64,000 nt of DNA from an uncultured Bacteroidales bacterium. Lineage in GTDB: Bacteria > Bacteroidota > Bacteroidia > Bacteroidales > Bacteroidaceae. This document shows positions 8,778-49,670 of this stretch, piece after piece; position 1 is the stretch's first letter; each line of letters starts with the position of its first letter. Location of the stretch: assembly GCA_945787885.1 (NCBI GenBank), contig CALZJF010000002.1, positions 33,264 to 97,263 on the forward strand. The letters run 5' to 3'. The translations under genes and the position numbers were made by a program. The notes beneath the pieces are model-generated. The model did not search any database. It saw nothing but the letters and a program-made list of their open reading frames with translations, and was not told the DNA's origin.

Positions 8778-8856
8778 GGTAGGTTCTATAAATTAGTTTT
8801 CAATGTAAGGCAGTGTGTCTGTCTTACTTATCGCAAGCTAATTGATAGAACCTACC
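8778..8856. mobile_element. MITE copy 1 (79 bp), TSD TAAA
   Basis: TIR GGTAGGTTCTAT(A/C)AATTAG, 18/19 match. TAAA at 8774-8777 and 8857-8860. Confidence 0.85.
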
Positions 8857-8873
8857 TAAAGCCATTCTTGCCG

Positions 8874-9046
8874 CGGCAATGACCATTTTGAGGGGTCAAA
8901 ACGATGAATTTGGGGGTCAAAATGATGACTTTGAGGGTTGAAAATGGTCACTCCGGAGGTGCGGCCTCCACGGAACGCTTGAGAAGTTCAGGATTTTCAG
9001 TCAGAAAGGTATCTCCATATTGTCCGCAAGCAGGCATTTTCAGGGA
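8874..9046. repeat. Dispersed element: 21-22-bp periodic array plus tail ending CAGGCATTTTCAGGGA
   Basis: Units GACCATTTTGAGGGGTCAAAAC / GATGAATTTGGGGGTCAAAAT / GATGACTTTGAGGGTTGAAAAT. Homologous to 27291-27458. Confidence 0.7.
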
Positions 9047-9128
9047 CATGATACAGAGGAACCAGGGAGAGGAGGCTGCGCCTGGGGGCAAATGCGCTCT
9101 GATAGGGCGTTCGATATTTGTGAATTAA

Positions 9129-9207
9129 GGTAGGTTCTATAAATTAGTTTTCAATGTAAGGCAGTGTTTCTGTCTTACTTATCGCAAGCTAATTGATAGA
9201 ACCTACC
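9129..9207. mobile_element. MITE copy 2 (79 bp), TSD TTAA
   Basis: One substitution relative to copy 1. TTAA at 9125-9128 and 9208-9211. Confidence 0.85.
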
Positions 9208-9372
9208 TTAAACGCGGAATATAGTAGGGCGGGCAGATGCGCCGCATGGCTGCGCGTCTGCCTGAAACATGATTTTGCCCCAATCCAGCTATTTTGGCCC
9301 GTCCTGGCCATAACAATCAAGGCTGGCTGTTTTGACAAGCCAAGAGCCGGAGCAGGCAGAATCATCCGCTGT

Positions 9373-11079
9373 TCAGGGGCGTTCCAAAGCCTGCTCATGG
9401 ACTCCAGCGACGGCGCGGCCGCTGGGATCGTTCAGATGCTTGAAGGCAGCATCCCACGCCAAGGCTTCGGCGGTGGAACAGGCCACGCTCGGCACACTCG
9501 GCACACTGCGGGCAGCACTGTCGGAGGGGAAATGCTCGGCAAAGATGGAGCGGTAGTAGTACTCCTCCTTGTTCTGGGGCGGATTGATGGGGAAACGCTC
9601 GGCGGCGTGTGCCATCTCTTCATCGCTTACAGCAGATGCCGTAAGTTCCTTCAGCGTGTCGATCCAGGAATACCCCACCCCGTCGCTGAACTGCTCCTTC
9701 TGCCGCCATGCCACCTCTTCGGGGAGCAGTTCGGCAAAGGCTTCGCGGACGATGCGCTTCTCCATCGTCTTCCCCGGACACATCTTGGCAGTAGGGTTGA
9801 GCCGCATGGCAATATCGAGAAACTCCTTGTCGAGGAAGGGCACACGGCCCTCTACGCCCCACGCCGAAAGACTCTTGTTGGCGCGGAGACAGTCGTAAAG
9901 ATAGAGTTTCGAGAGCTTCCGCACCGTCTCCTCGTGGAACGCACGGGCATCGGGAGCCTTGTGGAAATAGAGATAGCCGCCGAAAATCTCATCGGCACCC
10001 TCGCCGGAGAGCACCATCTTGATGCCCATGCTCTTGATGACACGGGCCAGGAGATACATGGGCGTGCTGGCGCGGACGGTCGTCACGTCGTAGGTCTCGA
10101 TGAAATAGATGACATCGCGAATGGCATCCAGACCTTCCTGAATGGTGTAGTTGATTTCGTGATGCACAGTGCCGATGCGGTCTGCCACGAGGCGCGCCTT
10201 TGCCAAATCGGGCGCGCCCTTCAGCCCGACGGCAAAGGAATGGAGGCGCGGCCAATACGCCTCGCTGCGGCCGTCTTCTTCGATGCGGCGGGCAGAGAAG
10301 CGGGCAGCGATGGCGGAGATGACGGACGAATCGAGACCGCCGGAGAGGAGGACACCATAGGGGACATCGCTCATCAGTTGTCTGCGCACGGCGTCCTCCA
10401 GTCCGTGCCTGACGTCAGAAGCAGAGGCAGGATTGGACTTCACCGCATCGTAGTCCGTCCAGTCGCGGTGGTAATAGCGCGTCATGCCGGGCGTTTTGCT
10501 CCAGTAGAAATGTCCGGGCAGGAAGGGCTCATAGCGGTCGCACTGCCCTTCCAAAGCCTTCAGCTCGCTGGCGACATAGACCATGCCGTCGGCATCGTAG
10601 CCGATGTAGAGGGGGATGACGCCGATGGGGTCGCGGGCAATGAGGAAGGCATCGCGTTCGACATCGTAGAGGGCAAAGGCGAAGATGCCGCTCAGCTGCT
10701 CCATCATGGCGGTGATGTCGGCGGCAGTGGGCTGGGGGTGGGCCGCCATCATGGCGCGATAGAGGGGGAGGATGACCTCGCAGTCGCTGCGCGTCTGGAA
10801 GAGATAGCCGTCGTGCATACGCCGACGGAGGTCCTGATGATTATAGATTTCGCCATTGACGGCGAGCACCTGCTTCTTGTCGGGGGAAAAGAGGGGTTGT
10901 CTGCCAGACTCCGGATCGACGATGCTCAGGCGTTCATGGGCAAGGATGGCGGAGCCACCGCTGTAGATGCCGCTCCAGTCGGGACCACGATGCCGGATTT
11001 TCTGACTCATTCTCAACGCCTTCTGGCGGAGTTCCGCACTCTGCATGCGGATGTTGAATAGGGAGACGATGCCACACAT
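9373..11079 (-). CDS. asnB: Asparagine synthase B (glutamine-hydrolysing)
   Basis: MCGI N-terminal nucleophile Cys, RHRGPDWSG, NGEIYNH, LSGGLDSS, SGEGADE, RVPFLD, RQKEQFSDGVG. Confidence 0.97.
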   Translation of the reverse strand: MCGIVSLFNIRMQSAELRQKALRMSQKIRHRGPDWSGIYSGGSAILAHERLSIVDPESGRQPLFSPDKKQVLAVNGEIYNHQDLRRRMHDGYLFQTRSDCEVILPLYRAMMAAHPQPTAADITAMMEQLSGIFAFALYDVERDAFLIARDPIGVIPLYIGYDADGMVYVASELKALEGQCDRYEPFLPGHFYWSKTPGMTRYYHRDWTDYDAVKSNPASASDVRHGLEDAVRRQLMSDVPYGVLLSGGLDSSVISAIAARFSARRIEEDGRSEAYWPRLHSFAVGLKGAPDLAKARLVADRIGTVHHEINYTIQEGLDAIRDVIYFIETYDVTTVRASTPMYLLARVIKSMGIKMVLSGEGADEIFGGYLYFHKAPDARAFHEETVRKLSKLYLYDCLRANKSLSAWGVEGRVPFLDKEFLDIAMRLNPTAKMCPGKTMEKRIVREAFAELLPEEVAWRQKEQFSDGVGYSWIDTLKELTASAVSDEEMAHAAERFPINPPQNKEEYYYRSIFAEHFPSDSAARSVPSVPSVACSTAEALAWDAAFKHLNDPSGRAVAGVHEQALERP

Positions 11080-11375
11080 ATTGTTTCTGCTGAGGAATAT
11101 AAAAAGGTTTTTGTGTTTTTCCGAATTGGCACGGTATGTGCTAAAAAAAATCGGAGTGAATGCCTGTTAAGTAGGGGCAAAAATATGGCTTTTCGGCCTA
11201 TGCCTGCCTTCCTGTCTGCGTAAAATCGGGAGAAGGGAAGACGCAGGAAGCAGAAGTGGCGAGTCGGGGTGTCAAAAAACAGCGCGAATTTGTCAAAAAT
11301 TCTCCGTCTCTCTTCCCCACCCTGCTGCGGAAAGGCCTCTGCATCAGGGATTAAGTAGGCCGTGAAAATGAGTTT

Positions 11376-11490
11376 TATGTTTGAAAGCTCTATTTGGATG
11401 CAGGTCTTAGTCCTGAAATAAAGGAGCATGGCGCGGACTATGTGACTGTTTTCAAGGCTAAGACCTGCGCCAAGGAGAGCTTCAAACATA
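11376..11490. repeat. ~41-bp-arm imperfect inverted repeat (115-bp hairpin)
   Basis: Left arm TATGTTTGAAAGCTCTATTTGGATGCAGGTCTTAGTCCTGAAA versus the reverse complement of the right arm, TATGTTTGAAGCTCTCCTTGGCGCAGGTCTTAGCCTTGAAA. Confidence 0.75.
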
Positions 11491-11521
11491 CAAGCCATGA
11501 TGATTCCTACTATATACTTAC

Positions 11522-11598
11522 GGTAGGTTCTATCAATTAGTTTTCAATGTAAAGCAGAAACACTGCCTTACATTGAAAACTAATTGATAGAACCTACC
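11522..11598. mobile_element. MITE copy 3 (77 bp), symmetric variant built from two left-type halves, no TSD
   Basis: 31-bp perfect inverted repeat GGTAGGTTCTATCAATTAGTTTTCAATGTAA. Flanks TTAC and TATA differ. Confidence 0.75.
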
Positions 11599-11648
11599 TA
11601 TAACAAGTATCATGCGTCGATGGTGAAAGAGCAGAAAACATTTTCACC

Positions 11649-12245
11649 ATGAAATTCCCTTATTATATTATAGGAGTGGCGCTGCTCGCCGCCCTCCTCT
11701 TCGGCATTGGCCAGCGGGCTGCCGTACGACGGCTTACGACGGAAAAGGAACGCCTGCAACTCAACCAGCAGGCACTGTTGAGCCGCATCGAGCGTTATCG
11801 GACGGACAGCGGACGCTCCGCCATCGCCTGCCAACGCCTGACACTGCACCACGAGGAGCTGCGGGCGGCAAAGGCTGAACTGGCGGCGGAGGTGAAGGCT
11901 CTGCGCATACGGCTCAGCCGCGTGGAGAGCATCGCAAAGACGGCATCGCGCAGCGAACTGCGGTTTGTGGCACCGCTGACGGACACGATGCTTGTCGGCA
12001 TGGCAGACTCCTGCCCGCAACGCCTCCTGACATGGCGCGACGCCTGGACGGAGGTGCGGGGCTGCATCCGCCGCGATTCTGCCGAGGTCAGCATCCTCTC
12101 GCGCGACACGCTGGTGCAGATAGTTCACCGCGTGCCGCACCGCTGGTGGTTCTTCCGCTGGGGAACGCGCGCCATCCGGCAGGAGGTGGTGAGCCGCAAC
12201 CCTCACACGCAGCTGGTCTATACGGAATATCTGCGGCTGGAATAG
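11649..12245 (+). CDS. DUF6549-like membrane-anchored coiled-coil protein typical of Bacteroidales phage lysis regions (possible spanin-like)
   Basis: N-terminal TM segment, coiled coil, C-terminal RDTLVQIVHRVPHRWWFFRWGTRAIRQEVVSRNPH. Family assignment from recall. Confidence 0.6.
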   Translation: MKFPYYIIGVALLAALLFGIGQRAAVRRLTTEKERLQLNQQALLSRIERYRTDSGRSAIACQRLTLHHEELRAAKAELAAEVKALRIRLSRVESIAKTASRSELRFVAPLTDTMLVGMADSCPQRLLTWRDAWTEVRGCIRRDSAEVSILSRDTLVQIVHRVPHRWWFFRWGTRAIRQEVVSRNPHTQLVYTEYLRLE

Positions 12246-12259
12246 CCGACGGACAGCGT

Positions 12260-12308
12260 AAAAAAACTCCGCATCGCCCCCCTCGTCGGGGGAACGGTGC
12301 GGAGTTTT
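12260..12308. terminator. Bidirectional terminator between convergent genes
   Basis: AAAACTCCGCATCG...CGGTGCGGAGTTTT stem. Confidence 0.8.
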
Positions 12309-12344
12309 CTTGTGTGTATATAAATTCTATATAAGAGGAGGCGT

Positions 12345-13937
12345 TTAGAAGAGCACCTTCTTACCATTGACGATGTAGAGGCCCTGGCTGGCGCGTACAA
12401 CTCGGCGACCGGCAATGTCGAAGATGGCGGCCGGCTGAGCTGCATCGCCGACGACGGTCTCTATGCCGGTCTTCTGCTCGGTGCTGCCATTGAGGGAGTA
12501 GATATAGTTGCCCTTGTTCATCTCGTGGGTGCCGTTGTAGTTGTAGAGCTCGCCATAAACCACGACTTCATCGCCGATTTTGAAATAATCGTCAGAGGTG
12601 ATGTCCTCACCGCCGATGCCGTAGCCCTGATAGACTTCGAGCTGGCCCTCTTCAGTAGCATCGTCGCTGATGAAATAGATGGCATTGGTGTAGTTGCCGG
12701 CGATTGACTGGATTTTGCTGATAAGGCCCTTCACATACACCTTCTTCGAGAGGTCGCTCTTGGGGTCTTCAATCAGTTCGTGAGCGCGAGCCACGCTGTA
12801 GGCCGTCGCGGGAGTATTGCTGATGTCGGTCAGCTCCACTTCCTGCACGAGCTTCACATCCGTGACAACGACGTTCACAAACTTCTTGCTGCTGACGTAG
12901 AGAGCGAAGCCAGTGATGTCATACTCGCTGCCGTTCGAGAGCTGTTCCTTCAGCTCTGCCGAGGGGGAAACGATGCTGCCGACGGCGGTCTCTGCCCCTT
13001 CGACGCTGACATTGTAGTAGTTGCCGGAGATATTGAGGGTGCCGCGGAACTTGATATAGTCGATTTCAGGCTCTGCCACCCATCCGTCGAGGTCTGCGCC
13101 CGTCATGACGGTGGGAGTAGGATAGCTGACGGTGCCGGATCCGAGGATATTCAGCATGGGACTGTTGAACTGATTGAAGCCACCATAGGTGGAAATCTCG
13201 CCCTGAACGCTCACCTTGTCGCCCACAGACAGCAATACTTCGGGGAGCCAGACGGGCTTGAAGCAGAACATATAGCCCGTTTCGTCGCCCAGGACGATGC
13301 TGTTGCTGTTCTGTGCCATCACGCTGCCATCTACCTGGGCCTTTACGCCCACCTCAGCGGCGAGGGCTTCGGCAACGGTCATCTTCTCGTAGGTGTCTTC
13401 TGAAGGCTCTTCGCCCTTCTCAGTCAGAACGAGGGAGGCATCATCGACGACGGCATTGGCAAGGGAGTTCTTTGAAACCATGACAACAACGCAAACGCGG
13501 CTGGCAGCGGCGAGCTTGAAGGAGTAGCTGACCTTCGTCCAGTCGGCAGCAGCATTCACTTCATCACCATAAACATAGGTGCCGACCTTGTTGTCAGCAT
13601 TGACGGGGACATAGCCTGCCTTTACGACAGTGCTTGACTCGGCATCTGCGCACTTGGCGTAGAAGGAGATTTCATAGGTGCCGGCTTCGAGGTCGAGCTC
13701 CTTGTAGGCAAGGCGCATGTTCTTAGCAGCCTTCGTCAGCTCTACGGCATACGTGCCGCCGTGGGCTGCCGTGGTTTTCGTGAGGGTGGCGTTGGAGGCG
13801 GTAGAGGCCGACTTCCAGTTTACGGGGAGATTGTCGGACTCCCATGTTTCAAAATCGCCGTTCTCAAGCAAATTCGTCTGAGCACTCAGGGTCAGGACGG
13901 AGAAAATGGTGGCAAAAAGGAGTAAAACTTTTTTCAT
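12345..13937 (-). CDS. Secreted protein: CBM4/9-like N-terminal domain, OB-fold domains and a Prevotella-type T9SS C-terminal domain
   Basis: Signal peptide; NLLENGDFETW (CBM_4_9-like); OB-like LSVGDKVSVQGEISTYGG and FKIGDEVVVYGELYNY; C-terminus IFDIAGRRV...GLYIVNGKKVLF. Confidence 0.7.
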   Translation of the reverse strand: MKKVLLLFATIFSVLTLSAQTNLLENGDFETWESDNLPVNWKSASTASNATLTKTTAAHGGTYAVELTKAAKNMRLAYKELDLEAGTYEISFYAKCADAESSTVVKAGYVPVNADNKVGTYVYGDEVNAAADWTKVSYSFKLAAASRVCVVVMVSKNSLANAVVDDASLVLTEKGEEPSEDTYEKMTVAEALAAEVGVKAQVDGSVMAQNSNSIVLGDETGYMFCFKPVWLPEVLLSVGDKVSVQGEISTYGGFNQFNSPMLNILGSGTVSYPTPTVMTGADLDGWVAEPEIDYIKFRGTLNISGNYYNVSVEGAETAVGSIVSPSAELKEQLSNGSEYDITGFALYVSSKKFVNVVVTDVKLVQEVELTDISNTPATAYSVARAHELIEDPKSDLSKKVYVKGLISKIQSIAGNYTNAIYFISDDATEEGQLEVYQGYGIGGEDITSDDYFKIGDEVVVYGELYNYNGTHEMNKGNYIYSLNGSTEQKTGIETVVGDAAQPAAIFDIAGRRVVRASQGLYIVNGKKVLF

Positions 13938-13989
13938 AGTTGATAGAGATTATAATAGAAGTTGGGGTGATTGCTGCTTTTTCAGGCTG

Positions 13990-13997
13990 CAAAGTTA
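13990..13997 (-). promoter_or_regulatory. -7 promoter element (TAACTTTG)
   Basis: TAnnTTTG match 53 bp upstream of the 13937 start. Confidence 0.55.
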
Positions 13998-14082
13998 AGC
14001 CTTATTTTCAGAAAAGTCTCTCAAAAATGGTCAAAAACAGGGTTTGTCATCAATTTTTCATAGGCAAACTGCCGCAGGACGC

Positions 14083-14128
14083 AAAAAAGCGGACAGCCCT
14101 ATCGCTGAAAACGAGAGGAACTGTCCGC
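14083..14128 (-). terminator. Terminator after the POT transporter
   Basis: GCGGACAG/CTGTCCGC stem followed by T6 on the minus strand. Confidence 0.6.
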
Positions 14129-14160
14129 CTGCAGGGGGAAAAAGAGGGGGAAGAGGAGGA

Positions 14161-15702
14161 TTATGCCACCTTCTCCAACTTCTTGAGAATGGTGAAGATG
14201 AAGAGTGCGGAGACGAGACAGATGCCTGCGAGCACGCTCCAGATGACTACGAGATTAACGTTTGCACCCCACATCAGACCGGGAATCATGACGAGCTGGT
14301 TGCCAATGGCAGTTGCTGCAAACCAAAGTCCCATCATCAAGCCGGCATACTTCGGGGGAGCCACCTTGCTGACGAAGCTGATGCCGATGGGCGAAAGAAG
14401 AAGCTCGGCGAAGGTCAGGACGAGATAGGTAGAAATCAGCCAGTTGGCATCCACGCGCGCCACTTCCTCGCCGGCTTTTATAGCCGCAGCCTGATCAACG
14501 GGCAAAGCCAGTCCGACCGAACCTGCTGCCATGAGGCAGAAGGCAGAGGCAGCGACGAGCATACCCAGACCTATCTTCTTCGGACTGGAAGGCTCCAGAC
14601 CTTTGCGGCCCAGCCATGAGAAGAGGGCTACGCTGACGGGCGTGAGGGCTACGACATAGCAGGGATTGAACTGCTGGAAGATGGGGGCTTCCACATCTAC
14701 GACAGAAGTTCCGAGCTGCTCCGACTTTACATAGAGGAAGGCGATGGCGGCAACGATGACAAACACGGAGATGCCGCGGCCCTTCAGAGTGGAGCTCTGG
14801 AAAATTCCGAAGAGACCATAGACGATGAAGATGCAAGCCACGAGGTTCGTCACATCGAACGCCATGGCCTGAATGCCTTGCGAGGTGGTGGCGGTGAAAT
14901 CGCGTGCGAAGAGGGTCAGCGTATTGCCGTTCTGATGGAAAGCCATCCAGAAGAAGATGACGACGGCAAAGACGAGGCAGAGGCATACGATGCGCTCCTT
15001 CGTCTCGGCGGGCGAAAGTTCGGGCTGGGCAGCCGTCTGCTTTGCTGCACCGTCGGCCTTCTTGCCCTCCTGAGAGATGACGTGCTTGTAGGTTCCGCTG
15101 AAAGCGTAGTAGATGGCAATGGAGACAATCAGGCTCACGCAGGCTACGGCGAAGGCGAAATGATAGGAGTCGGCCTCGCTCACGCCGAGCTGCGTCTGGG
15201 CATACTGCATCACCTTGATGGCGGCGGTGGGGGCAAACATGGCGCCGATGTTGATGGCCATGTAGAAGAGGGAGAAGCCGCTGTCGCGCTTGTCGGCATA
15301 TTTCGGGTCGTCATACAGACGGCCCACCATCACCTGGAGGTTGCCCTTGAAGAGTCCCGTGCCGAGGCTGACGAGAATGAGGGCAAGCCCCATGGCCGCT
15401 GCAGCGACGAAATTGCTGCCGAGGGGCACGGAAAGGAGGAGATAACCGATGAACATGATGAAAATTCCCGTCGTCACCATGCGCCCGAAGCCGAAACGGT
15501 CAGCGGCGATACCGCCAATGACGGGGAGGAAATAGACCATCATGAGGAATGTGGAATACACACCACTGGCGAAACCCGTCTGCCAGCCGAAGTTGGCTTG
15601 CAGGAAGAGGAGGAAGACGGCCAGCATGGTGTAGTAGCCAAAACGCTCGCCCGTATTGGCCAGCGCGAGAGCCCATAGGCCCTTTGGTTGTCCTTCAAAC
15701 AT
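14161..15702 (-). CDS. Proton-dependent oligopeptide (POT/PTR) MFS transporter
   Basis: ERFGYY (ExxERFxYY-like), GTGLFKGN, GFSLFYMAINIGA (PTR2 signature), ELLLSPIG. Confidence 0.92.
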   Translation of the reverse strand: MFEGQPKGLWALALANTGERFGYYTMLAVFLLFLQANFGWQTGFASGVYSTFLMMVYFLPVIGGIAADRFGFGRMVTTGIFIMFIGYLLLSVPLGSNFVAAAAMGLALILVSLGTGLFKGNLQVMVGRLYDDPKYADKRDSGFSLFYMAINIGAMFAPTAAIKVMQYAQTQLGVSEADSYHFAFAVACVSLIVSIAIYYAFSGTYKHVISQEGKKADGAAKQTAAQPELSPAETKERIVCLCLVFAVVIFFWMAFHQNGNTLTLFARDFTATTSQGIQAMAFDVTNLVACIFIVYGLFGIFQSSTLKGRGISVFVIVAAIAFLYVKSEQLGTSVVDVEAPIFQQFNPCYVVALTPVSVALFSWLGRKGLEPSSPKKIGLGMLVAASAFCLMAAGSVGLALPVDQAAAIKAGEEVARVDANWLISTYLVLTFAELLLSPIGISFVSKVAPPKYAGLMMGLWFAATAIGNQLVMIPGLMWGANVNLVVIWSVLAGICLVSALFIFTILKKLEKVA

Positions 15703-15787
15703 AGAAATTGTGTGTTGGTGGTTTTGGAATGTGGTTTTGGAATATTATTTGATTGTCATGTTATTGTCTCTCTATATATGTACGCTG

Positions 15788-18673: not shown

Positions 18674-18676
18674 CCA

Positions 18677-26601: not shown

Positions 26602-26627
26602 AGTATTTATATGGTGTATAGAGTTTT

Positions 26628-26707
26628 GGTAGGTTCTATAAATTAGTTTTCAATGTAAGACAGTGTTTCTGTTTCACTTGGACGCAAGCTAATTGATAGA
26701 ACCTACC
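26628..26707. mobile_element. MITE copy 4 (80 bp), TSD TTTT
   Basis: Same TIRs; TTTT on both sides; 26 bp upstream of the GH20 start codon. Confidence 0.85.
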
Positions 26708-26712
26708 TTTTT

Positions 26713-27079
26713 TTATATGCCGACATGCTCCCCCGTCTCTGAGAGATTGAAGGGCGACAGCTGTAGAGAATGACAGAAATGGCGCAACGGCTCTTCCGTG
26801 CTCACCGCACTGCCATCTTCATATAGGTAGGTTCTATAAATTAGTTTTCAATGTAAGGCAGTGTTTCTGTTTCACTTGGACGCAAGCTAATTGATAGAAC
26901 CTACCTATACAGAAAGCCCGGCATGACAGAAGGCCATGCTGTCCCTGGGCATTTCCCTTATCAGGAACGTCTTTCCCACGCGTCTTCTGCCATAAACAGC
27001 CGCAAGCTCTGGCCTGCCGCTTTCATAGAGCGCGCAGAAGTTCTTCCTGTTCTTCATTTCTGCCAATGATTTTTGCCAT
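26713..27079 (-). pseudogene. Decayed AAA/ATPase_2-type ATP-binding protein gene (frameshift, MITE insertion, probable large deletion)
   Basis: MAKIIGRNEEQEELLR, +1 frameshift, LYESGRPELAAVYGRRRVGKTFLIRE (Walker A). Removing MITE copy 5 and one TSD continues the frame as VYEDGSAVSTEEPLRHFCHSLQLSPFNLSET, which stops at 26713. Confidence 0.8.
26826..26905. mobile_element. MITE copy 5 (80 bp), TSD TATA, inserted in the ATPase pseudogene
   Basis: TATA at 26822-26825 and 26906-26909; one substitution relative to copy 4. Confidence 0.9.
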
Positions 27080-27203: not shown

Positions 27204-27290
27204 CAAGCAAACGCTCCGTTTTTTGCGAGAGATTCCCCGTCATTCTACATGAATCTTCAATTTTCCGACGGCTGTTTTTGCCTCGAATGT

Positions 27291-27458
27291 GACCATCTTT
27301 GGGGGTCAAGATGGTCATTTCCGAGGGTGATAATGGTCACTTCTGGGGACGGAAATGACCTCCGGGGAGGTGGAAGCTCCCTGAAACGGTCAGGGATGTC
27401 AGGGATTTCACGCTGGGAGAGGCCTCTTTTGCCTGTCAGAAACAGGCATTTTCAGGGA
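27291..27458. repeat. Second copy of the 22-bp-array plus CAGGCATTTTCAGGGA-tail element
   Basis: Units GACCATCTTTGGGGGTCAAGAT / GGTCATTTCCGAGGGTGATAAT / GGTCACTTCTGGGGACGGAAAT. The tail aligns with 8945-9046. Confidence 0.7.
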
Positions 27459-29045: not shown

Positions 29046-29125
29046 TAGGTAATAAAAAATTATAAGTAAGTATATAGTAGGAATGATTATGGCTTATATT
29101 TCATAAAAATAATTTTCATTACCTA
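29046..29125. repeat. AT-rich 80-bp inverted-repeat element between the EEP gene and hisS (possible degenerate MITE)
   Basis: TAGGTAATAAAAAATTAT versus the reverse complement of 29109-29125, TAGGTAATGAAAATTAT. Confidence 0.5.
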
Positions 29126-29138
29126 CTTGAAAGGGGAA

Positions 29139-30287: not shown

Positions 30288-30470
30288 AGCGTTGCTAAAG
30301 AGGGGAATGTTTGGAATGGGGACACGGATGCCACGTGATTTTTCTGAACATGAATGGCGCGAATGGCACGAATGCTGCGCGATTTTTGCTTTTGGACACG
30401 GATGCCGCGTGAATGTTCATTGAACACGAATGGCACGAATAGCACGAATGCTGCGCGAACAGCTGTTTGT

Positions 30471-31045
30471 GAAGTATTCGTGTAATTAGTGCGATTCGTG
30501 TTCAGTCAAATTTTCCGCGTGGTAAACGTAGAACACGAATTACCCGAATAGCACGAATGGGCGTGAACTGCTGTTGCGAAGTATTCGTGTAATTAGTGCG
30601 ATTCGTGTTCAGTCAAATTTTCCGCGTGGTAAACGTAGAACACGAATTACCCGAATAGCACGAATGGGCGTGAACTGCTGTTGCGAAGTATTCGTGTAAT
30701 TAGTGCGATTCGTGTTCAGTCAAATTTTCCGCGTGGTAAACGTAGAACACGAATTACCCGAATAGCACGAATGGGCGTGAACTGCTGTTGCGAAGTATTC
30801 GTGTAATTAGTGCGATTCGTGTTCAGTCAAATTTTCCGCGTGGTAAACGTAGAACACGAATTACCCGAATAGCACGAATGGGCGTGAACTGCTGTTGCGA
30901 AGTATTCGTGTAATTAGTGCGATTCGTGTTCAGTCAAATTTTCCGCGTGGTAAACGTAGAACACGAATTACCCGAATAGCACGAATGGGCGTGAACTGCT
31001 GTTGCGAAGTATTCGTGTAATTAGTGCGATTCGTGTTCAGTCAAA
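30471..31045. repeat. Tandem array of 107-bp units (5 identical plus 1 partial) of inverted REP-like arms; degenerate lead-in from ~30319
   Basis: Unit starts at 30471, 30578, 30685, 30792, 30899 and 31006. Arms GAACACGAATTACCCGAATAGCACGAAT and ATTCGTGTAATTAGTGCGATTCGTGTTC. Confidence 0.95.
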
Positions 31046-31265
31046 AAGTTTCCGCGCAGGGCGATTATCCATGCTGCCGCGCATGAAACGCGGTCAAAAC
31101 ACACGCAGAAACCTGCATTTTCGGGCGAAATAACGAGCGCGAAATTAAGTAAAGAATACGAGTCGGACAACAGAAAGCGGCGGATTATGGCAAAAAGTGA
31201 TGACTTTTTTCCCAAAAACCATCAAAAAGGATGGTCAAAATCCAAGCATATCGCCTAAAAAAAAC

Positions 31266-31337: not shown

Positions 31338-31445
31338 GGTGGGTTATATTTATTACCACCGTTTTCTTTTCTACCATAGCAGGGTTTCGTTTTGAAGAAG
31401 GGCAGCATTGCGCCCATCGCGAAAAACTAATAAATAGAACCCACC
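31338..31445. mobile_element. Divergent MITE relative (108 bp) in the 5' UTR of the TonB receptor
   Basis: TIR GGTGGGTT(A/C)TATTTATTA, 17/18 match, similar to the MITE TIR. No clean TSD. Confidence 0.6.
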
Positions 31446-34153: not shown

Positions 34154-34163
34154 ACATACTACT

Positions 34164-40330: not shown

Positions 40331-40406
40331 CTCGCTGCATCTTCGCCTCTGCCCCACACTATTTTTCTCAAGACCTTTACAGGATTTACGGAAACTTCTA
40401 TAGAAT

Positions 40407-41195: not shown

Positions 41196-41241
41196 CGCCA
41201 CGGCATTGTAAAACCTACCGGAAATCCCCCTCCTCCTCCCC

Positions 41242-41730: not shown

Positions 41731-41782
41731 TTCTCCGCTTCCTCCTTCCTTGAAAAAACTTTCTCCCTCCCTCTCCCTTACC

Positions 41783-42517
41783 ATGTCTCCCACGCTCCGA
41801 TTTCTACCGCTTCTCCTCATCGTCCTCTTCTGTCATGCGGCTCCGCCTGCCACGGCGCAAACCGTCATCGACCTCCACACGGGGCAAATCTCGGGGAAGA
41901 AGACGACGGACTACGATGTGCAGGCGCGCGAAAAGTGGCAACTTGAGCAAGACTCCCTGGCTTACATCGACTGCCTGACGCGGGCTTTCAATTTTCTCCA
42001 CACGGACTCCCTCGCGCAGGCGCAGGCGCAGTTCGAGCGCGCCCTCTCGCTCCGCCCGAAAGCTCCCGGCAACCGGGTGGTTCACCACTACTTGGCGCGC
42101 ATCTTCATGGCTCGCTCGCAGTGGAAGGATGCCCTTGCGCGCCTCTCGCGTCTTCTCGAACAGGAGCCTGCGAATGCCGATGTGCGCGCTGACCGCGCTT
42201 CCTGCTATCTGCAGCTCAGTCGGTTTGCCGACGCCGTCGCCGATCTCTCCTATCTCCTGTTGCAGCATCCCGACGACCCTCATTTCCTCTTGCTCCGCGC
42301 CACGGCTCACAGCGGTGCCCATCAGCCCTACGATGCGCTCGACGATTTAGACACCATCGTCCGCCTCTCCCCTGAAAATGCCGAAGCCTATCTGCTCCGC
42401 GCTGAAATCTATCTGGATTTGGGCCAGCGGGGCTATGCGCGCCGCGATGCGGAAAAGGCGTTGCAGCTCGGCATACAGGAGGCGGACATCGAGCCTCTGC
42501 TGAAACGCCTGAACTGA
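41783..42517 (+). CDS. Secreted tetratricopeptide-repeat protein
   Basis: Signal peptide; TPR-like helices (A..L.P, AEAYLLRAEIY). Confidence 0.8.
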   Translation: MSPTLRFLPLLLIVLFCHAAPPATAQTVIDLHTGQISGKKTTDYDVQAREKWQLEQDSLAYIDCLTRAFNFLHTDSLAQAQAQFERALSLRPKAPGNRVVHHYLARIFMARSQWKDALARLSRLLEQEPANADVRADRASCYLQLSRFADAVADLSYLLLQHPDDPHFLLLRATAHSGAHQPYDALDDLDTIVRLSPENAEAYLLRAEIYLDLGQRGYARRDAEKALQLGIQEADIEPLLKRLN

Positions 42518-42561
42518 CCGCCTCTCTCTCATTCTTCCCCCCTGCTAATCCTACTTTCCCC

Positions 42562-43998
42562 TTGAAATTCCTTTCCCTCCTCTTCTTTCTCATCGCTCTC
42601 CCCGCATCAGCCCAGCTGTGGCCGGAGCCATTCGCCATTGCCCCCTACTCTCGCGAGGTGCGGGCCGTATGGTACTGCACGCTCGGCGGCATCGACTGGC
42701 CGGGGCGGCAGTATGCCCAGACCGCTGCGAAGGCAGAGCGGCAGAAGCAGATGCTCTGCGAAGACTTCGACCGCCTGCAGCAGGCCGGCATCAATGTCAT
42801 TCTCTTTCAGGCCCGCGTGCGTGGCACGGTCACGTATGCCTCTGACTATGAGCCCTGGGATGGGGCTATTTCCGGCACTCCGGGCATGGCTCCGCCCTAC
42901 GATCCCTTGGAGTTTGCCGTCAGCGAGGCACACCGTCGGGGCATGGAGCTCCATGCCTACGTCGTCACCTTCCCCATCTGCAGCACCGCGCAGGCTAAGG
43001 CGCTGGGGCGTCAGGCAGTCAGCGCGCGCTATCCCGGGCTGGTGCAACGCTGTGGCGACCGCTGGTTCATGGATCCCGGTATGCCGGGGACGGCGCCCTA
43101 TCTGGCAGCCATCTGCAAGGAGATAGTCGAACGCTATGATGTCGATGGCATTCATCTCGACTATATCCGCTATCCTGAGCGCGAAATGGCGTTCAACGAC
43201 AACATTGCCTATAAGAAATGGGGCAACGGCGCGCCGAAGGAGCAGTGGAAGCGCGAGCAAGTGACGCGCACGGTGCGTGCCATCCACGATGCCGTGCGCA
43301 GCGTGCGGCCGTGGGTGAAGCTCAGCTGCTCGCCCGTAGGCAAGTATGCCGATTTGCCGCGGGCTTGGAGCCGCGGGTGGAATGCGCGCGATGCCGTCGC
43401 GCAGGAAGCGCAGGAATGGCTCAGGGAGGGCATCATGGACTGGCTGTTTCCCATGATGTATTTCGATGGCGATAATTTCTATCCCTTTGCCGCCAACTGG
43501 CAGCAAGAGTGCCACGGGCATCCCGTCGTCCCCGGTCTGGGCATCTATCTCCTTGCGCCCGACCAGAAGGACTGGACGCTGGAGAGCATCATGCGGCAGA
43601 TGAACTTCCTGCGTCAGATAGGCATTGGCGGACAGGCTTTCTTCCGCACGAAATTCCTGTTGGACAACCATAAGGGCATCCTCGATTTCTGCCATGAGTT
43701 CTACGCGCAGCCCGCCCTCACCCCTCCGATGACTTGGCTCGACAATACGCCGCCCGAATCGCCACGCGTGAGGCTGGAGCGCCGCGATGGCTATCGGCTG
43801 CTCATCAGTTGGGACGAGGTGAAGGACGACACTCCCATCCTCTACAACGTCTATCGCGAAGACCCCTCGGGCTATGTCGAAATGCTCGCCCACCATCTCA
43901 GTCAGCCCTATTTCCTCTATATTCCTGCCCTCCCCTCCCGCCTTCACGATAAAATCGTGGTCCGCGCCATGGATGCCTATGGCAACGAGAGCGAATAA
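42562..43998 (+). CDS. Glycosyl hydrolase-like 10 (YddW/DigH-like) protein; TTG start
   Basis: EVRAVW, DW, FQARVRG, YDPLEFAV.EAH.RGMELHAY, YDVDGIHLDYIRYP, FPMMY. Confidence 0.85.
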   Translation: MKFLSLLFFLIALPASAQLWPEPFAIAPYSREVRAVWYCTLGGIDWPGRQYAQTAAKAERQKQMLCEDFDRLQQAGINVILFQARVRGTVTYASDYEPWDGAISGTPGMAPPYDPLEFAVSEAHRRGMELHAYVVTFPICSTAQAKALGRQAVSARYPGLVQRCGDRWFMDPGMPGTAPYLAAICKEIVERYDVDGIHLDYIRYPEREMAFNDNIAYKKWGNGAPKEQWKREQVTRTVRAIHDAVRSVRPWVKLSCSPVGKYADLPRAWSRGWNARDAVAQEAQEWLREGIMDWLFPMMYFDGDNFYPFAANWQQECHGHPVVPGLGIYLLAPDQKDWTLESIMRQMNFLRQIGIGGQAFFRTKFLLDNHKGILDFCHEFYAQPALTPPMTWLDNTPPESPRVRLERRDGYRLLISWDEVKDDTPILYNVYREDPSGYVEMLAHHLSQPYFLYIPALPSRLHDKIVVRAMDAYGNESE

Positions 43999-44140
43999 GC
44001 GGGCAATCCGTTTTTTTTTACTTACCACAAGCATAGGACTATTTGCCAAGGCTTGCGTTGCCTCCCTACAGCGCAAGCCCAAGGAGTCATTCTGATTGCC
44101 TTGCCCCTTATTCCTTGACCCCTAATCCCTGTTCCCTGCC

Positions 44141-44932
44141 GTGCGTTCCCTCCTCATTCTCCTCTTTTGCTGCATTCCCTGCCTCGGTTTCCCCTTGCAG
44201 GCTTCTGCCCAAATGCGCCATGTAGGCCGCACCTGGCTCTTCGGCGTGGGCAAAAGCGCGCTCTATGACAGCTATCTCTCTCCCTTAGACTACCGTGGGC
44301 CTTCGCTGAGCATCAGCATGACGAACGAGCGGACGGCACGCTGGGGCAAAGGCAGGGTGGACTCCTATGCCCGATGGGCCATCGTGGGGACGATGGCGGA
44401 GAATGCCGTGGGGAATGCTGATTTCTACGATGGAACCGTGGATTTTTCGCTCGGATGGCACTACCGCTGGAGCTTCCCGCGCCACTGGACACTGCGCGCT
44501 GGCGCGCTGGCAGAGCTCTCCTTCGGCGGCACGTATTCTTCCCGCAATGGCAACAACCCCGCGCAGGGGCGGGCGGCACTCGATGTGGCGGCGTCCGTCA
44601 TGGCCGACTATGATTTCCGCCTTCTCTCCCGCCTCTTCTCGCTGCGCCTGCAGGCAGATGCTCCCGTGGTGGGCATGATGTTTTCGCCACAATACGGGCA
44701 GTCGTACTACGAGATTTTCTCGCTCCACCACTACGACCGCAATCTCCGCCCCACTTATCCCGGCAATGTCCCCTCGCTGCGCTTCGCCGCCCTCCTCGCC
44801 TTCCCCATTCGTCAGGCGCGCCTCGTGGCGGGCTATCAGGCCGACATCCGCCAGAGCGACGTGAATCAGCTCCGCCGCCATGCCTGGCAGCACGCTTTCA
44901 TCGTCGGTTTCCGGCGCCAACTTCACTTCTGA
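44141..44932 (+). CDS. DUF3316-like outer-membrane beta-barrel protein; GTG start
   Basis: YDSYLSPLDYRG, SRNGNNPAQ, FSPQYGQSYYEIF; C-terminal Phe. Confidence 0.7.
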   Translation: MRSLLILLFCCIPCLGFPLQASAQMRHVGRTWLFGVGKSALYDSYLSPLDYRGPSLSISMTNERTARWGKGRVDSYARWAIVGTMAENAVGNADFYDGTVDFSLGWHYRWSFPRHWTLRAGALAELSFGGTYSSRNGNNPAQGRAALDVAASVMADYDFRLLSRLFSLRLQADAPVVGMMFSPQYGQSYYEIFSLHHYDRNLRPTYPGNVPSLRFAALLAFPIRQARLVAGYQADIRQSDVNQLRRHAWQHAFIVGFRRQLHF

Positions 44933-44969
44933 TTCTTTCCCTTCCCTATATTCCTCCCCCCTCCTCCCC

Positions 44970-45992
44970 ATGCGCCACGCCATTCTCCCTGTTTTCCTCC
45001 TCGTCCTCGCCCTGCTGCCCGCGGGGTGCATCAGCAGCGAGGGCTTCGACGATACGCGCCGCGACAATTTCGAAGCTCTCTGGAGCATCATCGACCGCCA
45101 CTATTGCTTCTTCGACTATAAACGCACTGCCTACGGGCTCGACTGGGACGAGGTCTATCAGCGCTACAGCCCGCAGGTCAGCGAAAAGATGAGCGACGAT
45201 GCCCTCTTCCAGGTGCTGACGAACATGACGTTTGAGCTCCGCGATGGCCACGTCAATCTCGCCTCTCCCTCCAACACGGCTTACTTCACTGATTGGTATG
45301 AGGCCTACCCTGAGAATTTCAGCGACTCCATCCTGCGCCGCTATCTCGGTGCTGCCGACGAGGTTCGCGTCACGGCAGGTCTGCGCTACCGCGTCCTGCG
45401 CGACAACATCGGCTATCTGCGCTGCGCATCGTTTCAGAATGGCATCGGCGATGGCAACCTGCACGAGGTGATGATGTATCTTGCCTCCTGCGACGGCCTC
45501 ATCATAGATGTCCGCAACAATGGCGGCGGACTCATCACGTCTGCTCAGGCGCTGGCGGGAGCTTTCTTCAACGAGCCGCTGACCGTGGGCTATATGCAAC
45601 ACAAGACGGGCCCCGGCCACGCCGACTTCTCTGCCCCGCAGCCCATCCGCATTGAGCCCGCCGCGGGAATGCGGTGGCAGAAACCCGTAGTCGTGCTGGC
45701 AAACCGCCGCACCTTCAGTGCTGCCAATGCCTTCGTCATGTTTCTCCGTGCGTCAGGCAACGTCACCGTCATCGGCGACCGCACGGGTGGCGGCAGCGGA
45801 ATGCCCTTCAGCAGCGAACTTCCACGCGGATGGTCAGTGCGCTTCTCTGCCTGCCCGATGACGGACACTGAGGGCAACCACACGGAATTTGGCATCGACC
45901 CCGACATCCATGTCGATATCACCTCCGACGACTATCAGCGCAGCATCGACACTATCCTCGAAACCGCACTCTCACATCTTCTCCACAAATAA
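44970..45992 (+). CDS. S41 family peptidase lipoprotein
   Basis: Lipobox LPAG-C; LRDGHVNL, IIDVRNNGGG, FSAAN (catalytic Ser), GDRTGGG, GIDPD. Confidence 0.9.
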   Translation: MRHAILPVFLLVLALLPAGCISSEGFDDTRRDNFEALWSIIDRHYCFFDYKRTAYGLDWDEVYQRYSPQVSEKMSDDALFQVLTNMTFELRDGHVNLASPSNTAYFTDWYEAYPENFSDSILRRYLGAADEVRVTAGLRYRVLRDNIGYLRCASFQNGIGDGNLHEVMMYLASCDGLIIDVRNNGGGLITSAQALAGAFFNEPLTVGYMQHKTGPGHADFSAPQPIRIEPAAGMRWQKPVVVLANRRTFSAANAFVMFLRASGNVTVIGDRTGGGSGMPFSSELPRGWSVRFSACPMTDTEGNHTEFGIDPDIHVDITSDDYQRSIDTILETALSHLLHK

Positions 45993-46075
45993 ACAGGCCA
46001 TTTTTCCAAGTTCGTCCTGAATAGAACGACCTATCACCCGCAAAAACATCATTTGAACACGCAAAAATTTATTTT

Positions 46076-46610
46076 GAACACGAATTGCACGAATTACACG
46101 AATAATTTGCATCGGCATCCATACACATTCGGGAAATTCGTGTTATTCGTGTTCAATTTTTATCACGCAAAATATTGGGGGTGAACACGAATTACACGGA
46201 TTACACGAATATTTTGCATCGGCATCCATACACATTCGGGAAATTCGTGTTATTCGTGTTCAATTTTTATCACGCAAAATATTGGGGGTGAACACGAATT
46301 GCACGGATTACACGAATATTTTGCATCGGCATTCATACACATTCGGGCAATTCGTGTTATTCGTGTTCAATTTTTATCACGCGAAATATTGGGGGTAAAC
46401 ACGAATTGCACGAATTACACGAATATCGCGCGGCGGCATCCATACACATTCGGGAAATTCGTGTTATTCGTGTTCAATTTTTATCACGCAAAATATTCGG
46501 GTTGAACACGAATTGCACGAATCACACGAATGTGGCGCGGCGGCATCCATACACATTCGGGAAATTCGTGTTATTCGTGTTCAACATTTATCATGCGGAA
46601 ATTGGGGGTT
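46076..46610. repeat. Tandem array of 5 slightly divergent 107-bp units with the same REP-like arms
   Basis: Unit starts at 46076, 46183, 46290, 46397 and 46504. Arms GAACACGAATTRCACGRATTACACGAAT and ATTCGGGAAATTCGTGTTATTCGTGTTC. Confidence 0.95.
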
Positions 46611-46647
46611 GATTATGCGTACGAAATGCGGGGAATGACGTTGCTAT

Positions 46648-46765
46648 GCGGCAATGATTATTTTCAGGGGCGATTGTGGTCATTTTGACCCCAAAAAATG
46701 ATGATTTCGGACATGAAAATGATGATTTCGGGCACGGAAATGATGACTTCTTGGTCGGAAACAAT
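46648..46765. repeat. 21-22-bp periodic array
   Basis: GGTCATTTTGACCCCAAAAAAT / GATGATTTCGGACATGAAAAT / GATGATTTCGGGCACGGAAAT. The GCGGCAATGA head is shared with 8874. Confidence 0.7.
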
Positions 46766-46942
46766 GAGCGGAAATTCCATTTCGCCGTCGATAACAATTG
46801 ACTGACGGGGCAAAAACGGCGGGACGAGGGGGGAGGGGAAACGCTGCGGACTGACGCTTGACCAACTCCGACTGCAACCATATACCAACCATCTATCAAA
46901 TCCTACCATACTGACTATCAAATCATTCTTATTGCCAGCTTA

Positions 46943-46992
46943 CAACGCGCAAGCCCCCTGATTGGCGCTTCAATCAGGGGGCTTGCGCGTTG
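46943..46992. terminator. 22-bp perfect hairpin terminating the pilin locus
   Basis: CAACGCGCAAGCCCCCTGATTG-GCGCTT-CAATCAGGGGGCTTGCGCGTTG, 19 bp after the last pilin stop. Confidence 0.75.
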
Positions 46993-47011
46993 CGGCTGAC
47001 AGGGGGCAGAG

Positions 47012-49462
47012 CTATTTGATGCGAGGATAAGTGCCAGGCACATAGGTGTAGCGGTAGGCACTGCCGTGATTCTTCAACCACTCACGGTTAGCCGCGTTGG
47101 CAAAATAATTGGAGAACTCACCGTTATTGAGCTTTTCCATAAACAGATCGAGACCTTTGTTCAAACTCCAATGGTGCTCGAAAAATTCAATGTCAATCTG
47201 ATTGGAGACGATGAGCTCTTCGACAGAATTGACAAAGTCTTCCGACTGCATCTGAGACGTCAGGAGCGGGAAGCAGAGGCGGCCGGGAGCGAATGTGGGG
47301 TAGTCGGTCTTGGTAGGGTCGATATCTGAATTGAAATAGCAGCAGTAGGCGTAGCTGTTCACTGCATCGTATGCGCCGACGCCAGCATACGTGTGATAAT
47401 TGTCCTCTACGCTCTTATCCAGATTCTTCTCCGTGCCGCTGTGATAGCAGGAGACGAGCAGACCCTTGTTGTAACCGACGAGTCCGCCTATCGTACCGTT
47501 GCCCGTTGCCCATGCCTCTACTGCCCCGACGTGGGCGCAACCTATCATGCAGCTATTTTCTTCGATGGTGCCAATAAGGCTTCCGGAGTAAATCTCCTTG
47601 TTGGCAGGCTCCGTCTGCCGAATCTTTCCATCAGCATAGACGGCGCAGACGAGGCCTTCACAGTGGTTGGCCACGATGCCGCAGCCATCGACCTTCACAA
47701 CTTCAGAGAACTCAAGGTATTCCACCACGGAATTGGGACCGAGATGGAAGAAGAAGGGCTTACCCTTGAGGTTGCGGATGCTGCTGCCATTGCCTTGGAA
47801 GAAGCCGTTGAACCTACTTTCTTCATTAGCCTCATCGCAGTGAAGCCCAATGCCACACCAGTCGATGCACACGCTATCGGGCAGGAAGAGTTCGGGCTGG
47901 AGGACGATGTTGGCATCGAGCTTCACGTAGTAGCCCGTGAAGTCGAAGTAGGGCGCGTCGGCAGTGAGGGAGACGGACGTGCCGGAGAGATTCTTGTAAG
48001 TGACTGGCGTGCGGTTCGTTCCCTTTACCTCGTGGGCAAAGGAGACGAGCTCCTGCGCCGTGGAAATCAGGAAGGGGTGTGCCTGCGAACCATCGTTGCC
48101 GTAGATATCAGAGAGCTTCTGGGTGGTGGGATTGACATAGAGCCACGTGGCATCGTCCTCGGTGGCACGAGCGTCGCCGAAGATGGTGAAGTTGCTCCGT
48201 TGGAGCATTTCAGGCGTGAGCATGTTTTGCTTCTTATGAAGCTGACCATTGTCGGGCGTCTCAACAAACTGCCAGTCCATATACTCGGCGCCGACGGTCA
48301 TTTCCTCGTTCCGGTGGTTGAGGTTGATATGGATGGTGGTGCAGTATCCGCCTCGAAACTCTACTTCAGTGGGCATCTTGGCGGTATAGCGATGGGACTT
48401 CATGTTCGGCTGGAGCTTGGTGGAGGGGTCTTTCCATGGCTCCATCGGGTCTTGATAGCTGACGGTGAACTTCATGGTGAAATCCGAGCGCGTGGCAGGA
48501 ACTGCGAGGGCGTAGAAGACGAACTGCTTTCCGACTCCCGTTCCAGTTCCTTCCGGACGCGGAATCCATGCCTTCGTGTCCTTCTTCTGGTCATACTGGG
48601 GCGCAGCCTCAGGATAAAGGACGGCGAGCGCAGCCTGATCGTCGGCAGTCAGAGCCTGCGCGGCAGCAGAGCCTTGTCGCCATTTGTAGAGCGTAGGCAT
48701 ATCGGTATAAACCATATCGCTCACCCTCGACAAGACATCGGCGCTCTCATTGCTGGCAGAGAAGCCGGAGATGTTGACGATGACGCGCACGTTTGCCAAG
48801 GCGTGCTTGAAATAGAGCTTCGCTACGGAACCTCCCGGCTCGGCAAGTTTCTGCGTGTCGTAGGTGAGGAGGAGGTCGTCGCGCACGATCTTCGTGCTAT
48901 CGGTGTGGTCTATCGTATCATCGAGAATGAAAGGATTGCCGAGGGAACCGAAATACGTGTCGATGCCTATCTCCGTGCCTTCGGCATCCGTCGTGTAGCA
49001 AAGGGTGTGGCCCCAATCGAACGTCACCGCCTCTGCCTGCTGGGGGAGGCTGTAGCCGATGAAGGTGTGGGGATTGTGGGCATCGCTCCAGTAGATGCGG
49101 TCGGGCGTACGGGGCGGATTGGTATTGGTCTGGCCCTTCGTGTCATCGCGCGTCCATCCGCCGGAGGTCTGTCCCTCGCCCACGGCATGGGTATAGACGA
49201 TGCCGCGATAGGAGAATCCGTCGATGGGCTGACTCGTGCGTTGTATCTGCGTCAGCGTCAGCGCATCTTTGTCAATGAAACGGCTGCGGCCCACATAGAA
49301 ATCCTTGTCTAAGGCTGGGGCGCGCGAAGCCTTCTCCCCATCCACGCAGACTTCGATGCCGGAGAGGGGCACGGCGTCTTCGCCCGTGGGGAGATGCATC
49401 TGCTCTTCGGAGCAGCTCCAGAGGAGGAGGGAGAGCAGGAAGAGGGAAAAAAATTTTGCCAA
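47012..49462 (-). CDS. Type V pilin (Mfa-like) lipoprotein with C-terminal GLUG-like adhesin domain; TTG start
   Basis: Lipobox LWS-C, SRA site, LYFKHALANVRV, internal EYMDW, GSQAHPFLISTAQEL, FNGFFQGNG. Confidence 0.75.
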   Translation of the reverse strand: MAKFFSLFLLSLLLWSCSEEQMHLPTGEDAVPLSGIEVCVDGEKASRAPALDKDFYVGRSRFIDKDALTLTQIQRTSQPIDGFSYRGIVYTHAVGEGQTSGGWTRDDTKGQTNTNPPRTPDRIYWSDAHNPHTFIGYSLPQQAEAVTFDWGHTLCYTTDAEGTEIGIDTYFGSLGNPFILDDTIDHTDSTKIVRDDLLLTYDTQKLAEPGGSVAKLYFKHALANVRVIVNISGFSASNESADVLSRVSDMVYTDMPTLYKWRQGSAAAQALTADDQAALAVLYPEAAPQYDQKKDTKAWIPRPEGTGTGVGKQFVFYALAVPATRSDFTMKFTVSYQDPMEPWKDPSTKLQPNMKSHRYTAKMPTEVEFRGGYCTTIHINLNHRNEEMTVGAEYMDWQFVETPDNGQLHKKQNMLTPEMLQRSNFTIFGDARATEDDATWLYVNPTTQKLSDIYGNDGSQAHPFLISTAQELVSFAHEVKGTNRTPVTYKNLSGTSVSLTADAPYFDFTGYYVKLDANIVLQPELFLPDSVCIDWCGIGLHCDEANEESRFNGFFQGNGSSIRNLKGKPFFFHLGPNSVVEYLEFSEVVKVDGCGIVANHCEGLVCAVYADGKIRQTEPANKEIYSGSLIGTIEENSCMIGCAHVGAVEAWATGNGTIGGLVGYNKGLLVSCYHSGTEKNLDKSVEDNYHTYAGVGAYDAVNSYAYCCYFNSDIDPTKTDYPTFAPGRLCFPLLTSQMQSEDFVNSVEELIVSNQIDIEFFEHHWSLNKGLDLFMEKLNNGEFSNYFANAANREWLKNHGSAYRYTYVPGTYPRIK

Positions 49463-49481
49463 GGGGGAAAAGATGATTTTA

Positions 49482-49670
49482 GGTAGGTTCTATAAATTAG
49501 TTTTCAATGTAAGGCAGTGTTTCTGTCTTGCTTGGATGTCTTCACGCCTCTCGCACCGTATCTTTTTGTCTTTCATTCAGTCACGTAGCCCGCTACGCTC
49601 CCTCGTGAAAAACAAAAACCTACGGCACGATAGTCGCAAATACATCGCAAGCTAATTGATAGAACCTACC
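49482..49670. mobile_element. MITE copy 6, long form (189 bp), TSD TTTA
   Basis: Same TIRs; TTTA at 49478-49481 and 49671-49674; ~110-bp core absent from the short copies. Confidence 0.88.

Follow-up and report, generated by a model that had tools for sequence, protein, structure and literature searches.

An abundant miniature inverted-repeat transposable element family with 4-bp target duplications, recently and probably still active in gut Bacteroidales

[quoted passage not shown] MITEs of the IS630/Tc1-mariner type (Stowaway-type) are also short and non-coding, are bounded by TIRs, reach high copy numbers and use a palindromic T...A target, of which they duplicate the TA. Within the order Bacteroidales, MITE239, MITE464, PgRS and BrickBuilt have been described in Porphyromonas gingivalis (PMC2575886, PMC4596501), and a catalogue of prokaryotic MITEs counts 81,380 distinct MITEs in Bacteroidota and finds MITEs to be mostly genus-specific (PMC11602168). 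Here we describe a MITE family that is represented by six copies in a 64,000-nucleotide stretch of a pig-gut Bacteroidales genome. This stretch, called the window, corresponds to C2:33264-97263 of the source assembly G000 (GCA_945787885.1; 2.70 Mb, 96 contigs, 91% complete, 53.5% GC), where C-numbers denote contigs of G000, G-numbers other genomes, and L-numbers fetched stretches or contigs. The contig of the window belongs to ENA assembly ERZ941000 (run SRR3176534), from a pig-gut sample.

The family shows the marks of a MITE: it is small and non-coding, has 19-bp TIRs and a target-site duplication (TSD) of fixed length, and leaves precise empty sites. We put the probability that the copies form a real MITE family, one that has moved recently and is probably still active, at roughly 80%. 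It is a new MITE, with a TIR that is printed in none of the literature searched; it may be listed in the tables of the prokaryote catalogue, which contains no description of its TIR, TSD, fold or activity (PMC11602168). It differs from the Correia elements by its 4-bp TSD and its presence in several Bacteroidales families, and from the IS630-type MITEs by the duplication of TWWA and by the fact that no DDE_3 gene with its ends was found. With the P. gingivalis MITEs it shares the order, the association with assembly breaks and the polymorphism between strains (PMC2575886, PMC4596501), but those are different elements. Its TIR crosses family boundaries, in contrast to the mostly genus-specific MITEs of the catalogue (PMC11602168).

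In the source genome, a 19-mer search that allowed 2-3 mismatches finds 418-434 termini of the family. Their 19-bp TIR, GGTAGGTTCTATAAATTAG, is perfectly inverted in the genome consensus. Paired termini define 147 complete elements of 61-258 bp, 104 of which have exactly the 189 bp of the master form, and the 120 full-length copies match the consensus with a median identity of 97.9%. Since at least 82 of the 192 contig ends fall within a copy, there should in truth be about 190-230 copies. This one element accounts for about 1.2-1.5% of the 2.7-Mb gut Bacteroidales genome, and such a MITE family is a cause of fragmentation in metagenome-assembled genomes (MAGs).

An exact 4-bp TSD borders 111 of the 147 elements, against 10.7 (maximum 23) when the flanks are re-paired at random, and 22 of the remaining 36 have a TSD that is off by one base. 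The target logo reads T(83%)-W-W-A(77%), with palindromic flanks (T at -4 and C at -3, G at +3 and A at +4), giving the consensus TWWA. The outer bases of the TSD vary, yet they are duplicated exactly (ATAA, TTAT, TTTT and others), so that the TSD cannot be re-parsed as 2 bp. Insertion sites have a flank GC of 41%, compared with 53.5% for the genome, and lie in long open reading frames in 26% of cases, compared with 81% of random positions. The copies are dispersed singly and in balanced orientations (57 versus 55).

Direct evidence for movement comes from conspecific contigs of pig and other gut metagenomes, which were retrieved by exact-protein look-ups; look-ups with HisRS and the fimbrillin gene retrieved no further strains. 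An earlier note on the window had proposed a search for empty sites in related strains, and these were found at two loci. At the site of copy 1 of the window, which is occupied in L087 and L089, three contigs are the same as the window (CTT-TAAA-element-TAAA-GCC), and the site is empty, with one TSD copy (CTT-CAAA-GCC), in five independent assemblies (L086, L088, L090, L094 and L095). At C13:24475 the 189-bp form is inserted within the 5-bp spacer that separates two genes (CCTACC-TTAA-189 bp-TTAA-TAGATATG), and six independent assemblies carry the empty allele with a single TTAA (CCTACC-TTAA-TAGATATG). Seven further sites are occupied in every contig that reaches them. The precise empty alleles with one TSD copy establish that the family truly transposes, and strain-to-strain differences of this kind make MITE sites a practical marker for strain typing.

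The short forms derive from the 189-bp master by internal deletion. A 101-bp class is present at four loci, an 80-bp class at three and a 79-bp class at two; the junction is shared within each class and every copy has its own TSD, so that these deletion forms have themselves been mobilised and the ends suffice. As they transpose without the centre of the element, the centre is not needed for mobility. A further class of 77 bp is a left-arm/left-arm palindrome. One conspecific contig (L091, positions 1-51) has a long-form interior at the copy-1 site, within the same TAAA duplication, where the window has the 79-bp form, and that 79-bp copy shares its junction with copy 2, 351 bp away; this suggests that the element was shortened in place or converted by copy 2, or else that the assembly is in error. 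Elsewhere, conspecific contigs turn to unrelated genes right after a MITE copy (L099, L100 and L109, compared with C13 and C47), which reflects either chimeras joined at the repeat or genuine rearrangements between copies.

In a search of the first 24 relatives, copies with high identity to the 189-bp consensus came from the source genome alone. The TIR is present in 61 of the 148 species of the genus, with separate large expansions of 254 (G081), 123 (G088), 94, 87 and 83 termini; in G057 a relaxed pattern that includes GGGATG and GGGTTG variants gives 510 termini. In other species, copies share 89-91% identity with the consensus, and their flanking genes, at most 71% identical or undetectable, are too diverged for a comparison of empty sites in these species. 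Within the order, 401 high-quality genomes yielded only three with expansions. MAGs that carry the exact 19-mer include ones labelled Alloprevotella, Bacteroidaceae, Prevotellamassilia, Alistipes, Rikenellaceae, Paludibacteraceae and Equimonas, in copies mostly of 188-190 bp. A MAG derived from the window's own sample reaches only 74% identity. The separate expansions with the same ends, together with the occurrence in other families, therefore speak for a transposase for these ends that probably circulates in animal-gut Bacteroidales. The consensus is unmatched in plasmid and phage collections. A contig classed as viral (L281, IMG/VR UViG 2600255111_000002) carries at 1621-1793 an element of 173 bp that shares the core of the TIR, GGCTGG/GGGCGG-GTTCTATAAATTA, and has an interior of TAGTCCCACC-like tandem units.

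Together, our data support a non-coding cut-and-paste element with a 189-bp master form and 19-bp TIRs that inserts at AT-rich, mostly intergenic TWWA sites and duplicates 4 bp. A DDE-type transposase that recognises the TIRs must move the element in trans, along with deletion derivatives down to about 79 bp, for which the ends are sufficient. The helper may attack 5' of the T on each strand of TWWA (T/WWA, cuts 4 nt apart) and not at TA (T/A, 2 nt). Because of the similarity of the TIRs, the most likely helper would be a relative of the IS630/Tc1-mariner elements of the genus that cuts with a 4-nt stagger, an assignment to which we give a little less than an even chance. Complete, TA-flanked DDE_3 elements of 1.1 kb in the genus have the termini AGTAAGTG..CAAAATTAGTTTA and share with the MITE a terminal heptamer, [A/G]GTA[A/G]GT, and a subterminal AAATTAGTTT. 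Compared without gaps over 25 positions, six DDE_3 termini agree with the family TIR at 13-17; a score of 17 is reached by 3 of the 17,898 25-mers in the DDE_3 loci, and exactly three insertion sequence (IS) termini score 17. The TIR also resembles that of a co-resident MITE family with TA duplications, described below. Identification of the helper would reveal whether duplications of 4 bp are within reach of an IS630-like enzyme.

Several results speak against this proposal. An element with these TIRs around a transposase gene was found neither in the source genome nor in G431, a 99%-complete relative with 24 copies, and no TIR-flanked transposase was found in 92 GTDB stretches, 24 metagenome stretches, plasmids, phages and viral contigs. 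PF13358 (DDE_3) has no match in the source genome or in five high-quality MITE-bearing genomes, and 7 of the 148 genomes of the genus have one. Canonical IS630 elements, including the copies in the genus, duplicate TA and not 4 bp, and a 4-bp TSD with variable outer bases is not reducible to 2 bp. Scans of public collections turned up TIR pairs of MITE size, single ends and two passenger genes between TIRs, and near-complete carrier genomes yielded MITE-sized TIR pairs only. The source genome has no match to PF13612, PF01609, PF05598, PF13701, PF13586 or PF13358, and among the transposase loci of these six families fetched from the genus none carries the family TIR; for five DDE families the ends at these loci are unrelated to it, and the IS982, IS4/IS5, IS1182 and IS1380 elements of the genus have other ends. 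IS982-like, IS1380-like and other IS ends lie at contig boundaries of the source assembly and the interiors of these elements are not assembled, so that the absence of a transposase from this assembly is weak evidence.

Four candidates for a parent or autonomous element were rejected. At C3:297 the N-terminus of a frameshifted IS982 is found 120 bp inward of a GGTAGGTTCTATAACTTA terminus, but comparison with complete IS982 copies shows that the IS begins at ACGTGAG, which makes this an insertion into a MITE TIR; the IS982 ends, ACGTGAGTTCG, are unlike the TIR, and the copies at C3:297 and C53 are inserted in it after nt 18. In L267 a GGGATG-type TIR is situated 315 bp from an IS1380-like gene, with an IS1380 end (CCTTAATTCCGC) between the two, indicating a nested insertion. 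Ends of two kinds that abut the TIR, X and Y (AATA[CG]T[TA]CGTTAAA), are found in both orientations relative to the TIR and also at non-MITE sites, and are attributed to a different IS with a preference for this target; none of the other 147 species has Y. Lastly, a pair of family TIRs at C29:18705-19998 (L001 1006-2299) spans 1294 bp and encloses a lipoprotein gene and no transposase. A comparable pair in L306 (185-1684), which spans 1500 bp, encloses a single gene; the passengers of both are a lipoprotein or secreted protein, and the arrangement resembles mobile insertion cassettes.

The AT-rich part of the TIR, TCTATAAATTAG, is itself a hot spot for other IS, namely IS982-like (ACGTGAGTTCG), IS1380-like (CCTTAATTCCGCA) and X/Y elements. 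Such junctions lie at C3:297, at the starts of C53, C83, C46, C95 and C68, and at the ends of C28, C66, C17 and C84, and of ten X/Y ends, six fall within the TIR of a MITE.

An alternative that concerns the purpose of the element is that the 189-nt rod with its apical hairpin has a role for the host or at the RNA level (transcript stabilisation, processing, or a small RNA), in which case selection on one strand would keep the fold and transposition would merely be the means of spread. We regard this as possible but doubtful. The consensus is predicted to fold into a single rod, an imperfect palindrome, at -72.4 kcal/mol (z = -10.6). A copy from Alistipes with a different interior has the same predicted fold (z = -7.6), and all 17 of 17 sequences across taxa have fold z-values between -3.6 and -11, so that length (188-191 bp) and fold are kept across families despite diverged interiors. 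In the apical stem, compensatory changes occur at 4 of 5 pairs and none is broken. When 62 copies are placed on a covariance model built from 15 copies, 92.7% of cells pair, against 79% after shuffling and 41-48% for slid partners, and 33 of 37 pairs outside the outer TIR helix show double changes; however, the alignment is fitted to the structure, the copies are related, and gene conversion from one palindrome arm to the other can look like covariation. The two strands are not equivalent, as one is more stable by 12.8 kcal/mol in 107 of 112 copies of the source genome, and distant copies score 80-112 bits with the model on one strand and 30-40 bits on the other. Many copies are located just upstream of start codons, which would suit a role in transcripts and makes the family a likely source of regulatory variation. 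Against such a role speak the transposition of deletion forms that lack the centre, the equal frequency of both orientations, and the lack of any match to the element in Rfam, promoter and terminator searches.

A combined view would have the family moved by an undescribed IS630/Tc1-mariner-like clade with a 4-nt stagger at TWWA (not 2 nt at TA), and would have selection on one strand maintain the 189-nt rod, with its covarying apical hairpin, across Bacteroidales families, the rod serving as a structured RNA or a single-stranded DNA intermediate and not being a passive palindrome. As a conjunction of both statements we consider it rather unlikely.

As to the identity of the helper, the earlier note had considered the element non-autonomous and dependent on mobilisation in trans, the window having no transposase, and had seen a fit to the IS5 subgroup or IS1182. 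The first part agrees with the empty sites; the second did not hold up, and derivation from and mobilisation by a transposase of the IS5 subgroup or IS1182 now seems improbable. Ends that begin with GG, together with TSDs of 4 bp at palindromic T..A targets, would fit descriptions of the IS5 subgroup of the ISfinder type, and PF01609 and PF05598 are found in 86 and 32 of the 148 genomes of the genus. However, the GGNNNGTTCTAT end is present at 0 of the 30 PF01609 and 0 of the 30 PF05598 loci fetched (0 of 60), the source genome is without a PF01609 match, the target is TWWA and not YTAR, and the TIR instead resembles IS630-type ends.

Cross-mobilisation by the IS1380-family elements of the source genome, which have different ends and a habit of short AT-rich TSDs, is very improbable. 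The IS1380 family makes TSDs of 4-5 bp, IS1380-like ends (CCTTAATTCCGCA) are present at three contig ends of the source genome (C5, C19 and C46), and copies of 1.6 kb exist in the genus. These ends (CCTTAATTCCGCAGC) are nevertheless unrelated to the MITE TIR, the copies in the genus lack clear TSDs, and the IS1380-like end of C46 directly adjoins a MITE TIR at its nt 14, which reads as an insertion into the MITE.

Finally, a structural or regulatory repeat like the repetitive extragenic palindromic (REP) sequences or bacterial interspersed mosaic elements (BIMEs), spread by an enzyme of the REP-associated tyrosine transposase (RAYT) type or by recombination, would account for the strong hairpin, the intergenic location and the lack of a transposase with these ends, but such an origin, which the earlier note would have favoured had neither empty sites nor a transposase with these ends come to light (the former were found, the latter was not), is excluded by the precise empty alleles with one TSD copy in five and six independent assemblies at two loci, and is further contradicted by exact 4-bp TSDs far above chance and by copies that are single, dispersed and in both orientations.

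All six window copies that the earlier note had listed are present where it placed them (Table 1), and its description of them was accurate: five have exact 4-bp TSDs, the TIR is 19 bp long, the two members of the 79-bp pair and of the 80-bp pair differ by one base, and three copies lie within 50 bp of a start codon. The TIRs of the window copies are 18/19 complementary (A versus C at position 13), and GGTAGG occurs 30 times in the window against 15.6 expected. Neighbouring genes were fixed by Pfam matches and by gene calls in conspecific contigs. The three copies close to start codons are copy 3, 50 bp upstream of the start of a DUF6549 gene (11649), copy 4, 26 bp upstream of the start of a GH20 gene (26601), and copy 6, 19 bp upstream of the start of a fimbrillin-like gene (49462); copy 6 lies between two such fimbrillin-like genes. 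Copy 2, downstream of an asparagine synthase gene, has a deletion junction identical to that of copy 1 and is occupied in all conspecific contigs that cover the site. Copy 3, which belongs to the 77-bp class and is fixed in 10 of 10 conspecific contigs, occupies a nested position at the right end of a degenerate member (about 11354-11521) of a second MITE family, and this nesting may explain its missing TSD. Copy 5 splits a frame on the minus strand; removal of the element and one TATA restores an open frame of 97 amino acids with a Walker-A motif, GRRRVGKT, and the host frame is plausibly a pseudogene fragment of a Walker-A ATPase.

Table 1. Positions of the MITE copies in the window and of related or co-resident repeats (window numbering unless a contig or stretch is named).
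Feature	Position	Strand	Description
Copy 1	8774..8860 incl. TSDs; element 8778-8856	+	79-bp deletion form; TSD TAAA/TAAA
Copy 2	9125..9211 incl. TSDs; element 9129-9207	+	79-bp form; TSD TTAA/TTAA
Copy 3	11522..11598	.	77-bp near-perfect palindrome, left arm twice; no TSD
Copy 4	26624..26711 incl. TSDs; element 26628-26707	+	80-bp deletion form; TSD TTTT/TTTT
Copy 5	26822..26909 incl. TSDs; element 26826-26905	+	80-bp form; TSD TATA/TATA
Copy 6	49478..49674 incl. TSDs; element 49482-49670	+	full-length 189-bp master form; TSD TTTA/TTTA
Solo TIR-like remnant	31427..31445 (G000 C2:64690-64708)	-	GGTGGG variant CTAATAAATAGAACCCACC; 3 mismatches from family TIR
Second-family sites	11354-11521; 29109-29127; G000-wide e.g. 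L002 1047-1265		
Third-family sites	G000 C14:20575-20702; C14:21879-22005; C55:2782-2910; six contig ends		

The window also contains short arrays of a 22-bp GGGGTCAAAATGATGAC-like unit (8866-8960, 27276-27370 and 60716-60788), one of them directly beside copy 1, and two tandem arrays of a 107-bp unit (30360-31152 and 45968-46609) with units up to 100% identical.

The second, sister MITE family of the source genome has the TIR AGTAGGTAATGAAAATTAG, a length of about 192 bp and 178 termini. TA is present on both sides in 34 of 45 pairs, and at best 22 of 25 positions of its TIR agree with IS630-family elements of the genus. A third family of small repeats has the TIR TATTGCTGTCCGGTAAAAC and elements of about 110-130 bp. 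Palindromes of 38-39 bp at C10:50448-50485 and C31:16548-16586 consist only of two inverted IS982 ends (ACGTGAGTTC...GAACTCACGT) and represent minimal IS982-derived mini-elements. At the end of C33 and the start of C76, contigs break at a multi-copy gene that starts with MATKYLDPKADLTFKKVF and that resembles the PD-(D/E)XK 'Rpn/putative transposase' family; in C76 this gene begins directly at the end of a second-family MITE.

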